Source: a virus (taxonomy: Duplodnaviria > Heunggongvirae > Uroviricota > Caudoviricetes). From it: a stretch of 40,694 nt of DNA. The translations under genes were made by a program, and so were the position numbers. The stretch lies in IMG/VR virus record IMGVR_UViG_2541047798_000002. One strand, written 5' to 3'. Below are positions 8,325 through 9,797 of the stretch, piece by piece; within the stretch, counting starts at the first letter, position 1; each line of letters begins with the position of its first letter. The notes below the pieces were generated by a model. The model saw nothing but the letters and a program-made list of their open reading frames with translations, ran no database searches and was not told the origin of the DNA.

Positions 8325-8349
8325 AAAACCCGGCGCGGAAGCCGGGTTT
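8325..8349 (-). terminator. Intrinsic terminator closing the immunity-region leftward transcript
   Basis: cccggc-gcggaa-gccggg hairpin flanked by A-run/T-run (bidirectional); located after the 44-aa ORF and before the AT-rich OL/PL region. Confidence 0.6.
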
Positions 8350-8364
8350 GAGATTTAGTTATTT

Positions 8365-8499
8365 TCAGCAGCTCGGATAAGAGCGGAAGTGCTGACGAAC
8401 ATGTTCGAGCTCACCGAAACGTATGCGGCAGTAACTGCGCACATAAACCGGCTTGTCGTGTTCGTAGATGAAGTCATCGCGATTAACATCGTGAGCCAT
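8365..8499 (-). CDS. Small hypothetical protein (44 aa), third gene of the cI-linked cassette
   Basis: Not in the ORF track (<60 aa). ATG preceded by AGGAGA at 6-nt spacing; translation MAHDVNRDDFIYEHDKPVYVRSYCRIRFGELEHVRQHFRSYPSC; bracketed by two intrinsic terminators. Confidence 0.4.
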   Translation of the reverse strand: MAHDVNRDDFIYEHDKPVYVRSYCRIRFGELEHVRQHFRSYPSC

Positions 8500-8644
8500 A
8501 GCTTTTCTCCTGTTTTTGTATACAGCCTGTTTACCCGAACAGGTTGTAGTTTGTTGGGAGAACCGCTATCCTTGGCTTGCGGTTGCCAAGGGTGTAGCGG
8601 TAGGTAATCCTCCATACACTTCGGAAATACTGGATATATTTCCG

Positions 8645-8672
8645 ACCCAAAAAGCCCCGTTCCCTCGGGGCT
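8645..8672 (-). terminator. Intrinsic terminator immediately after the 177-aa gene
   Basis: gccccg-ttccct-cggggc hairpin starting 2 nt after the stop codon, followed on the minus strand by TTTTTGG (bidirectional: T-run on the plus strand too). Confidence 0.6.
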
Positions 8673-9206
8673 TTATTCTTTTGTTCCGCCATCAATCATC
8701 GCAAAAGATTCCACAATCAGACTGATACGCTTGGCTTCATCTTTTGTCAGGTCGCGAGGCAGGTTGCCAATGGTGACGATAAGATCTCCGCGCAATGGAA
8801 TCGGCAGTTCAAATGTTTTTACACCAACCTGTACGTCAGCTACCGCCTTCTTCTTAGGTGCCATCTTTTTACGCTCCTTTTTTTTATTTACATCACCAAC
8901 TGACACATTAATCTCACCATTCTGGTAGGAGATAAATTTATCAATAGCACTTTGCATCCGGCTTTTGTATGCCTGCAAAGATGATTCAGAGGGTTTGCTT
9001 TCTGCTGAGTCTGCGTACGAACTTGCTAAGTTGGCAACGCTATAATCACGGATATCGGCATCGGTGAAATCCGACCCAAGAACAGTAAGAAGGCGCAGGG
9101 AAGAGTCACGGAGATTGCGGGCTGTAGCATCATTGACGATACCAAGCTCAGGAAGCATCTGTAAGAAGTCCTGAAATGCTTTGATGGTGTAGCTTTTGGT
9201 TTGCAT
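8673..9206 (-). CDS. Hypothetical protein (177 aa), cI-linked cassette gene 2
   Basis: ORF with N-terminal ~110-aa region, lysine-rich linker NKKKERKKMAPKKKAV and ~60-aa C-terminal region; no family recognised. Sits in the lambda rexAB-equivalent slot. Confidence 0.6.
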   Translation of the reverse strand: MQTKSYTIKAFQDFLQMLPELGIVNDATARNLRDSSLRLLTVLGSDFTDADIRDYSVANLASSYADSAESKPSESSLQAYKSRMQSAIDKFISYQNGEINVSVGDVNKKKERKKMAPKKKAVADVQVGVKTFELPIPLRGDLIVTIGNLPRDLTKDEAKRISLIVESFAMIDGGTKE

Positions 9207-9395
9207 AAAAAAGCCTCATACAGTTGATGAGGCAATACTAATTTGATCGTCAAAACAAATCAAGACCCAAGAAACGATCGTTGATTCCTTTCTTTGTGAC
9301 AATACAGTCAAATCAAGTTTTACAAGGATTACTTTTCTTCGATTACATTAAAGGCCGCACTTCTGCGACCATCCATCACCAAAATGTCTCTTCAC

Positions 9396-9737
9396 TCATC
9401 CGAAGAAGCAGCAATCCGGGTCAGCACGCACAAGCTCAAGCGCATCAGTCAGCGAAAGTTCAGTACTGTACTGATGCCATTTCATATCCTTCCGCATCCA
9501 ATAGATTTTCCATCTATCCAGAGAACGTATGTACTTGATTCTTGCTGATGGCAGGATGTTTGTTTCACCTGGGTTGCCCTGCCACACGGGGCGCTGTTCG
9601 CCGATATCTATCGTTTGGTCATTGATGCTATAAACAATATCCAGTTCATTGCGGATATGTTCAGGCGGCCTTATGCTTTCAATGAATTGGTGAACTTCTT
9701 TTTTGACCGCTTGATATTCAAGGTCAGTGAACGCCAT
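9396..9737 (-). CDS. Hypothetical protein (113 aa), cI-linked cassette gene 1
   Basis: ORF starting 60 bp downstream of the cI stop on the same strand (rexA-like position); Trp/Lys-rich C-terminal half (RWKIYWMRKDMKWHQY); no family recognised. Confidence 0.6.
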   Translation of the reverse strand: MAFTDLEYQAVKKEVHQFIESIRPPEHIRNELDIVYSINDQTIDIGEQRPVWQGNPGETNILPSARIKYIRSLDRWKIYWMRKDMKWHQYSTELSLTDALELVRADPDCCFFG

Positions 9738-9797
9738 CTATCCTCCTCACCCAAACGTCTCTTCAGGCCACTGGTTACCAGCTATGTGACGATGAAG

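Follow-up and report, generated by a model that had tools for sequence, protein, structure and literature searches.

In lambda, the slot between the repressor gene cI and the leftward promoter PL is occupied by rexAB. The rexA-rexB genes of lambda, nun of HK022, bstA of BTP1, and PD-Lambda-2 all lie 3' of a repressor gene and before the leftward operators and promoter (OL/PL), closed by a terminator, with cargo that differs between phages while the flanks are common. In the Shiga toxin (Stx) phages 933W and phi24B, the same slot lies within the operon of the repressor promoter PRM, which runs cI, p24/vb_24B_13c, the RuvC-like gene "res," stk, a small open reading frame (ORF), and the terminator tM; 933W Stk belongs to the validated PD-T4-6-type kinase defense family and itself excludes HK97. 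Here, we describe this slot in the IMG/VR virus record IMGVR_UViG_2541047798_000002, the whole analyzed stretch of which (40,694 nucleotides [nt]) is referred to as the window. An earlier reading of the letters alone, referred to below as the original prediction, had located three minus-strand ORFs here, which we recover at the same positions, namely, orfA (9396-9737, 113 amino acids [aa]), orfB (8673-9206, 177 aa), and orfC (8365-8499, 44 aa). We interpret the region from 8321 to 9765 as a stack of two independent cargo cassettes, orfA on the one hand and orfB with orfC on the other, at the exchange hotspot that lies between cI and PL in a lambdoid, P22/HK620-like prophage. The two-cassette anatomy is held with high confidence, and the explanation as a whole is given a probability of about 0.6.

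Gene distribution and the cI-to-PL slot

Gene presence was scored by tblastn in 140 loci from IMG/VR, public assemblies, and annotated records, and we observe that orfA, a DUF3024 gene, and the orfB/orfC pair occur apart far more often than together. orfA alone is present in 67 loci, orfB alone in 32, orfB with orfC in 12, and orfA with orfB in 2, which means that orfB is missing from 67 loci with DUF3024 and DUF3024 from 44 loci with orfB. The trio is not conserved as a unit, with all three genes present in 27 of the 140 loci, and these 27 represent one near-identical Escherichia coli lineage, repeatedly counted, plus the Sakai-type pairing (L116/L117; L numbers denote individual loci), in which orfA, orfB, and orfC are 98%, 40%, and 57% identical to the window genes, respectively. 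Furthermore, orfA is split in two in VT2-Sakai (L143, 10557-10858), 1717, and the PA phages, while the orfB homolog orf22 is intact. A DUF3024 match in two pieces was also seen in phages 2851 and YYZ-2008, with an intact orfB homolog nearby.

This distribution largely refutes the model of the original prediction, according to which the three genes form one lysogen-expressed anti-phage system with cooperating parts, and which we now regard as very improbable. The model draws on the adjacency and common orientation of the genes, on the sharing of the trio at 99% identity by phage SH2026Stx1 and about 25 IMG/VR contigs, and on the second, divergent DUF3024 plus orfB/orfC pairing of the Sakai type. 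Against these stand not only the locus counts and the VT2-Sakai DUF3024 pseudogene but also a terminator hairpin and a separate predicted promoter between orfA and orfB, as well as the differing evolutionary ranges, since DUF3024 is found in many phyla while the named orfB relatives (from a word-indexed homolog search only) all belong to Enterobacterales.

The features of the slot and its anchors, all on the minus strand (-), are the following.

9798-10502 (-): cI-type repressor of 234 aa with helix-turn-helix and Peptidase_S24 domains; upstream anchor of the slot
9747-9765 (-): linker repeat copy 1, TGAAGAGACGTTTGGGTGA, in the gap from the cI stop to the orfA start
9396-9737 (-): orfA, 113 aa, DUF3024/PDC-S43; probable second gene of the PRM/cI operon
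9376-9394 (-): linker repeat copy 2, TGAAGAGACATTTTGGTGA, directly 3' of the orfA stop
9353-9370 (-): hairpin GGTCGCAGAAGTGCGGCC, 3' of orfA, its T-tract degraded to TTTAATG
9235-9263 (-): predicted sigma-70 promoter of orfB, TTGATT-17 nt-TAGTAT, read from the sequence
9213-9233 (-): hairpin GCCTCATCA-ACTG-TATGAGGC followed by T6 and then the orfB ATG, with the orfB Shine-Dalgarno (SD) sequence (GAGG) in its 3' arm
8673-9206 (-): orfB, 177 aa, with an N-domain (residues 1-100), a lysine-rich linker, and a C-terminal part of about 45 aa
8862-8885 (-): run of eight A residues (8878-8885), AAGGAG, and the in-frame ATG of Met115 (8862-8864), inside orfB
8651-8674 (-): intrinsic terminator AAAGCCCCG-AGGGAA-CGGGGCTTT followed by TT, directly 3' of the orfB stop
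8500-8650 (-): structured leader of orfC, with hairpins H1 (8623-8643) and H3 (8526-8543)
8365-8499 (-): orfC, basic micro-protein of 44 aa, phrog_21154, core V.V..Y.R...G.LE.V..H[YF]RS.P
8321-8349 (-): final intrinsic terminator AAACCCGGC-TTCCGC-GCCGGGTTT followed by TATTT, 3' of orfC
8099-8115, 8124-8140, and 8156-8172 (-): OL1, OL2, and OL3, by alignment transfer of the ST2-8624 annotation
8097-8172 region (-): PL, with -35 at 8125-8120 and -10 at 8102-8097, from a promoter scan; downstream anchor of the slot

Each ORF is preceded by the SD-like sequence that had been claimed for it (GAGGAGG at 9748-9742 for orfA, GAGG within 9219-9213 for orfB, and GGAG at 8510-8507 for orfC), and each matches one PHROG family of unknown function (E values of 4.5e-67, 5.2e-79, and 1.9e-31, one for each of the three ORFs). 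The ratio of nonsynonymous to synonymous substitution rates (dN/dS) is 0.07 to 0.15 for orfA and 0.03 to 0.07 for orfC, the latter at a dS of 0.6 to 0.96 and with values above 1 for the other two frames of the same DNA. By these sequence-based measures, all three ORFs are genuine genes. An 86-aa ORF overlapping orfC (8355-8615) is longer but unconserved and was therefore rejected as spurious. The GC-rich terminator-type hairpins with T-runs 3' of orfB and orfC, the lysine-rich linker of the 177-aa protein, and the Trp-rich C-terminal half of the 113-aa protein are likewise as first described, and two further hairpins can be added, one 3' of orfA (9353-9370) and one with T6 before the orfB ATG (9213-9233). 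The statement that none of the proteins could be matched holds with respect to RexA and RexB, to which no homology was found for any of the three ORFs in Pfam, NCBIfam, PADLOC, or the Protein Data Bank (PDB), but fails for the 113-aa protein, which matches Pfam DUF3024 and PADLOC PDC-S43; "uncharacterized" is thus apt for function but not for the identity of this gene. NCBIfam gave no match for any of the three ORFs and PADLOC none for orfB or orfC, and sequence searches of the PDB, by single protein or by profile, returned chance-level matches only (AvrPto, CagZ, and RPN8).

With respect to the slot itself, the repressor matches Pfam Peptidase_S24 (E = 3.8e-16) and phrog_4, cro and cII are divergent from it, and its gene shows about 95% DNA identity to cI of H-19B, ST2-8624, and BP-4795, which assigns the window to the H-19B/BP-4795 immunity type. 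The annotated H-19B-type operators of ST2-8624 (GQ499358) were carried over by alignment, which places OR3-OR0 at 10521-10604 and OL1-3 at 8099-8172, and the N antiterminator gene lies at 7634-7990, downstream of the three-ORF block. Since OL1-3 and OR3-OR0 could be mapped in this way, orfA, orfB, and orfC can be assigned to the rexAB-equivalent slot, in agreement with the original prediction; as expected of a RexA/RexB-type system, the block lies between cI and OL/PL and carries terminators (8651-8674 and 8321-8349). The backbone is that of a P22/HK620-like podophage with an H-19B-type immunity region (megablast), a mosaic that was found in 0 of 5,426 complete E. coli genomes; the window cI and the window cargo were found together in none of these genomes and in no phage record. 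Rfam places a P22-type sar antisense RNA at 36657-36723 (-) and a lambda cIII thermoregulator element at 6831-6889 (-) of the window, and it reports no family in 8000-9900. The prophage small RNAs AsxR, AgvB, Pas, and svsR were considered and set aside, as they are located at PR' or within cI and not in this block.

The idea that this slot is an exchange hotspot is borne out, as the same cI and N flanks hold differing cargo across genomes. The H-19B/BP-4795-type repressor is followed in named phages by genes other than orfA, orfB, and orfC, and the block 8272-9790 is present at 99% identity in phage SH2026Stx1 beside another repressor (megablast). The slot of BP-4795 and H-19B holds PD-Lambda-2 (E = 2.5e-42 and 3.8e-50) plus a PD-T4-9_C-like protein, with BP-4795 ORF20-22 (L002) and the H-19B-type genes matching PADLOC PD-Lambda-2_A, PD-Lambda-2_B, and PD-T4-9_C; the annotations of the matching genes read HigB-family toxin, transcriptional regulator, and hypothetical protein. 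The 933W-type slot holds the RuvC-like gene and Stk, which matches PD-T4-6 (E = 1e-37) and mad6. Between the same cI/N flanks, DUF1828 or a Clp-fold protease is found in further E. coli genomes, and Yersinia prophages with their own cI carry BstA in the equivalent slot. Homology with ST2-8624 resumes at about 8330, and the terminator at 8321-8349 is taken as the downstream border of the variable cargo because its T-tract belongs to the conserved H-19B-type flank. At the other end, a 19-nt direct repeat (repeat family D2) brackets orfA, with two copies in the window versus 0.01 expected. The linker GGCCTGA[A/T]GAGACGTTTGGGTGA (about 19 to 25 nt) follows cI in BP-4795, which has no DUF3024, and the same linker is found at other cassette borders 3' of cI in many lambdoid phages (L002, L038, L123, and L141). 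It looks like a recombination handle for cassette exchange, and the 19-nt repeats may thus give a concrete handle on cassette swapping at this hotspot.

The DUF3024 gene behind the repressor

orfA is a member of Pfam DUF3024 (PF11225; E = 2.4e-31, 108.7 bits versus a gathering cut-off of 24.9), with residues 4-113 aligning to positions 2-112 of the 112 profile positions, and it fits the PADLOC model PDC-S43 end to end (E = 7.2e-42, residues 1-113 on profile positions 1-115). The PDC models describe 145 candidates derived from genes embedded in BREX, DISARM, and type I restriction-modification loci ("guilt by embedding"; bioRxiv 10.1101/2024.01.29.577857), and membership in PDC-S43 carries no information on mechanism. 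DUF3024 is an already known family of unknown function, which is not mentioned in the literature searched; PDC-S43 is found there solely among the PADLOC predictions for an O157 strain. The family is present in 144 phage records of the searched collection, including 933W, phi24B, Min27, and Salmonella SE1, and orthologs of orfA comprise ST933Wp24 of 933W, vb_24B_13c of phi24B, gp24 of Salmonella SE1, and genes of Min27 and Stx2-86.

The gap between cI and orfA in the window is 60 nt long and free of hairpins, and because there is no terminator between them, orfA is most likely cotranscribed with cI from PRM. The putative PRM terminator in the 933W and phi24B records comes after the whole block of cI, DUF3024, res, stk, and the small ORF. 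The ortholog vb_24B_13c is among 14 prophage genes, along with cI and stk, that are unchanged on induction (Veses-Garcia et al., PMC4651098), and the same paper describes it as previously linked to the lysogenic state. The absence of a terminator between cI and the 113-aa gene, together with this reported link, makes the originally proposed expression in the lysogen likely. The hairpin at 9353-9370 probably represents a weakened end of the cI-DUF3024 transcript, to judge from its T-tract, which amounts to T6 to T8 in the Sakai type, L036, and L038 and is missing in 933W, where the operon runs on into stk.

The original prediction had raised the question of whether its genes always stand beside a cI-like repressor. 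In 79 of 91 loci, an S24 repressor gene stands no more than 250 bp upstream of DUF3024, the repressors falling into 14 types at 90% identity. The next gene on the 3' side belongs to 19 different clusters, among them RuvC-like plus Stk, a pair of 162 and 206 aa, ParA-like ATPases, an NYN protein, an MqsA-like protein, and P63C, and in some loci N follows without an intervening cargo gene. Beyond Enterobacterales, 217 DUF3024 relatives in many phyla were recovered by scanning a single genome per species. In the 80 loci inspected, the nearest neighbors are of mixed kinds, with toxin-antitoxin and housekeeping genes and an immunity protein among them, and no recurring partner was found among these 80 loci using naive ORF calls, indicating that DUF3024 is a self-contained single gene. 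The linkage of DUF3024 to cI is specific to enterobacterial lambdoid phages.

The AlphaFold2 model of orfA (predicted local distance difference test score, 90.9) is an alpha-beta5-alpha sandwich. Invariant residues of DUF3024 are found at the termini (MAF.D.E ... D...CF.G) and in a Trp/Tyr patch (W76, Y79, W80, R82, and W87), and no catalytic motif is evident in orfA. From the model, we infer that orfA is a binding protein rather than an enzyme. Cassette 1 would consist of DUF3024/PDC-S43 alone, a small, non-enzymatic-looking alpha/beta protein acting without a partner, and DUF3024 is to be considered singly rather than as a member of a trio.

orfB, the orfC leader, and the micro-protein

A profile search of 1.84 billion proteins recovered 1,118 representative clusters of the orfB family at E <= 1e-3, nearly all of them 160 to 200 aa long and matching over their full length. 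Residues 1-100 form a confidently predicted four-helix domain (AlphaFold), the best structural matches of which are the core-binding domains of integrases. Sub-threshold Pfam matches to Phage_int_SAM_1/3/4/5/6 or Phage_int_M, which are weak, were obtained for 5 of 32 close and 17 of 142 distant members, and no other Pfam family recurs among the sub-threshold matches; a Pfam family could be assigned to none of the 142 members scanned, and Foldseek against viral models returned nothing significant for orfB, with an integrase as the top match. The modeled N-domain thus appears to be like the core-binding (SAM-like) domain of tyrosine recombinases, while orfB has no catalytic domain and lacks the RKHRH-Y active site. 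The C-terminal part of about 45 aa, KTFELPIPLRGDLIVTIGNLPRDLTKDEAKRIS.IVESFA, is near-invariant while the N-domain falls to 35% identity, and as a sole query it retrieved only fragments of 63 to 71 aa and no new domain fusions. orfB is split into 121 and 63 aa in L030-L032, and both phrog_36396 and the 63- to 71-aa database entries coincide with its C-terminal part. The stretch at 8862-8885 could be a slippage site, an internal start yielding a 63-aa C-terminal product, or sequencing or annotation noise.

Upstream of orfB, the predicted promoter scores 8/12, under the consensus scan threshold of 9/12, and its -10 abuts the hairpin at 9233-9213. Palindromes containing GATC are found close to it (9276-9279 and 9245-9248), and comparable promoter-like sites with GATC palindromes precede orfB homologs in every context examined. 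Upstream of orfB, the GATC density is 2.24 per 120 nt versus 0.35 in the rest of the loci, a roughly 6-fold difference (Poisson P of about 1e-22, 21 non-redundant upstream regions, which are phylogenetically related). This suggests operators or methylation-sensitive control. In L010-L064, the palindromes often overlap the -35, as exemplified in nin-type loci by GGATTCATCGATC...GATCGATGAATCC. The hairpin at 9213-9233, compensatory variants of which are seen in the L026 and L033 types (folding z = -1.55, unexceptional alone), may be either an insulating terminator against read-through or an SD-occluding hairpin, and it may act only on read-through from PRM, since a transcript from the orfB promoter would start within its 5' arm.

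Downstream of orfB, the terminator at 8651-8674 is kept, with compensatory changes, in every aligned orfB locus. The orfC leader that follows has a minimum free energy of -61.4 kcal/mol (z = -6.16), with 0 of 200 shuffles as low. Its segment ATAGCGGTTCTCC (8557-8569) is predicted to form two mutually exclusive pairings, an "open" one with the upstream ACCGCTA (8595-8601) and a "closed" one with the orfC SD and AUG (GGAGAA at 8505-8510 and GCTAT at 8498-8502). Both helices are kept in 87 to 89% of cells across 10 diverged leaders versus 22 to 43% in controls in which each 3' partner of the tested structure was slid, and compensatory changes turn TTCTCC:GGAGAA into TTTACC:GGTAA and ATAGC:GCTAT into ATAAC:GTTAT. 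Of 36 distinct spacers, 28 have a TAGCGG motif at +89 to +105, and the leader matches no family in Rfam. Expression of orfC presumably needs read-through of the orfB terminator as well as opening of the leader.

A micro-ORF starts 152 to 175 nt past the orfB stop in 71 of 73 orfB loci, and these micro-ORFs belong to the orfC family (39), a 57-aa basic family (25), or a 44-aa zinc-ribbon-like family (7). The two loci without one (L030/L124, from the same IMG/VR contig) carry a truncated orfB followed by an apparent, putative insertion sequence-like insertion. Zinc binding by orfC was considered and rejected, as Cys and His residues are unconserved across its family. Between the window and a satellite-like element, orfC is 95% identical while orfB is only 43% identical; therefore, what stays constant is the C-domain of orfB together with the terminator, the leader, and orfC, and what varies is the promoter region plus the orfB N-domain, a pattern expected if N-domain and DNA sites covary.

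This second cassette occupies the cI-to-N slot in the window, SH2026Stx1, the Sakai type, and Yersinia prophages, in one of which it stands behind BstA. In many phages, orfB is instead found on the PR strand within the nin region, ahead of NinB, RusA, or Q-like genes, and in satellite-like elements (with primase, AlpA, and their own capsid genes), it lies between replication and capsid genes. The cassette is also present in an Enterobacter island, together with Hcp and an Ntox44 toxin. In Salmonella, DinI-orfB-orfC is located beside pepN (L225-L229), in some strains flanked by P2-like tail and baseplate genes, and it is retained in loci without phage structural genes nearby. The Salmonella arrangement is very common (indexed in 304 blocks), with the effector genes NleG and PagK close by in some strains. 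Like a moron, the cassette has a promoter-like site and terminators, and many E. coli genomes hold other cargo between the same cI/N flanks; we regard this as moron behavior because its own predicted promoter and terminators are kept at non-homologous positions in unrelated backbones.

Proposed role and comparison with known systems

We propose that both cassettes are expressed in the lysogen and would serve in conflict between mobile elements, such as superinfection exclusion or abortive infection. Cassette 2 would be a self-contained unit with its own GATC-rich, palindrome-bearing predicted promoter, in which orfB, a DNA-binding-type protein, combines a near-invariant C-terminal module with an N-domain that changes in step with the promoter region. 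orfC would be held under a double lock, namely, the orfB terminator and then a leader RNA that hides its ribosome-binding site and start codon. orfB may be a sensor or regulator that controls its own expression, and orfC an effector under tight gating, set free when termination or leader folding is disturbed. Confidence in a conflict or exclusion role is moderate to low, and confidence in the sensor/regulator and gated micro-effector mechanism is low. The case for defense relies on the location of the genes, the PDC candidate label, and the gated architecture of orfC. Several observations weigh against it. None of the three proteins matches an experimentally validated defense protein, and the authors of the PDC models call all 145 systems untested (bioRxiv 10.1101/2024.01.29.577857). 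DUF3024 is dispensable in VT2-Sakai, 1717, and the PA phages, since it is broken there. The orfB C-terminal segment has a low-confidence AlphaFold model, the leader covariation comes from only 10 related sequences, and no promoter was found for orfC, the expression route of which is inferred. The nin-region and satellite positions of orfB also fit a developmental regulator.

This last point leads to the alternative that orfB, leader, and orfC form the element's own regulatory module rather than a defense, for example, a MrpR/SroF-like recombinase-derived factor with a small co-factor that acts on late, packaging, or excision functions or on competing integrases. We consider this unlikely, as the module keeps its own predicted promoter and terminators at every position, occurs in at least 4 unrelated backbone types at non-homologous positions, and survives beside pepN in Salmonella without nearby phage structural genes; moreover, near-identical phages would not be expected to do without a core developmental regulator, yet different cargo is found between the same cI/N flanks. 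Less probable still is that orfC and its leader constitute a toxin-antitoxin-like addiction element, in which a silenced toxic protein stabilizes the element. The small basic protein, the flanking terminators, a leader with alternative folds that can sequester the SD, and retention next to decayed prophage DNA would all suit such an element, while no antisense promoter at threshold (consensus promoter scan), antitoxin RNA, repeats, or Rfam family was detected, and orfC is not hydrophobic, unlike most type I toxins. For cassette 1, a possible, although not favored, alternative is that DUF3024 is an inhibitor or immunity-type binding protein and not a defense, which might shield the lysogen from an interbacterial toxin or damp SOS/RecA to stabilize lysogeny; the immunity protein among its distant neighbors and its non-enzymatic appearance are to be read in this context, as is its place in the repressor operon, which equally suits the exclusion role proposed here.

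Beyond the two-cassette explanation with its conflict role, a more specific and rather speculative version can be formulated, which we rate as improbable. The orfB-leader-micro-ORF unit would be an undescribed, widespread mobile-element module with protein-RNA-peptide logic, and DUF3024 would be a true single-protein defense factor, firmly tied to the repressor operon in Stx phages and P22-like phages. A dead recombinase core-binding domain would read DNA, with a possible Dam/GATC dependence, and the C-terminal module would act via the UAGCGG-containing leader RNA to switch on the micro-protein effector, with phage exclusion or inter-element warfare as the outcome.

The contents of this slot show how prophages arm their hosts, including Shiga toxin-producing E. 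coli, and the Stx phages examined keep Stk or PD-Lambda-2 in it. The orfB-leader-micro-ORF unit appears to be undescribed, widespread, and of unusual design, a large family that combines a predicted promoter, a DNA-binding-like protein, a putative RNA switch, and a micro-protein and that spans lambdoid prophages, satellite-like elements, P2-like prophage neighborhoods, and chromosomal islands. Recombinase-like folds are used as phage regulators in MrpR of SPbeta and SroF of phi3T. These are full-length recombinase-like proteins, unlike orfB, which has a four-helix N-domain apparently like the core-binding (SAM-like) domain of tyrosine recombinases but, instead of their catalytic domain, a lysine-rich linker and a conserved module of about 45 aa without a known relative. 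With hok/sok-type silenced toxin mRNAs, orfC has in common a micro-ORF and a structured leader that can pair with the SD and AUG, and with type III toxin-antitoxin layouts, an upstream terminator that limits read-through to it; in contrast to both, orfC is basic and no membrane peptide, and no antisense RNA, repeats, or Rfam match was found. None of the three proteins resembles RexA, RexB, Nun, BstA, or the PD-Lambda-2 proteins, whose position they share, in sequence or fold. The closest likeness is to 933W, in which a DUF3024 gene 98% identical to orfA stands directly after cI, with the same linker and hairpin after it; the window differs in having an H-19B-type instead of a 933W cI and in carrying orfB and orfC, rather than res-stk, behind DUF3024.

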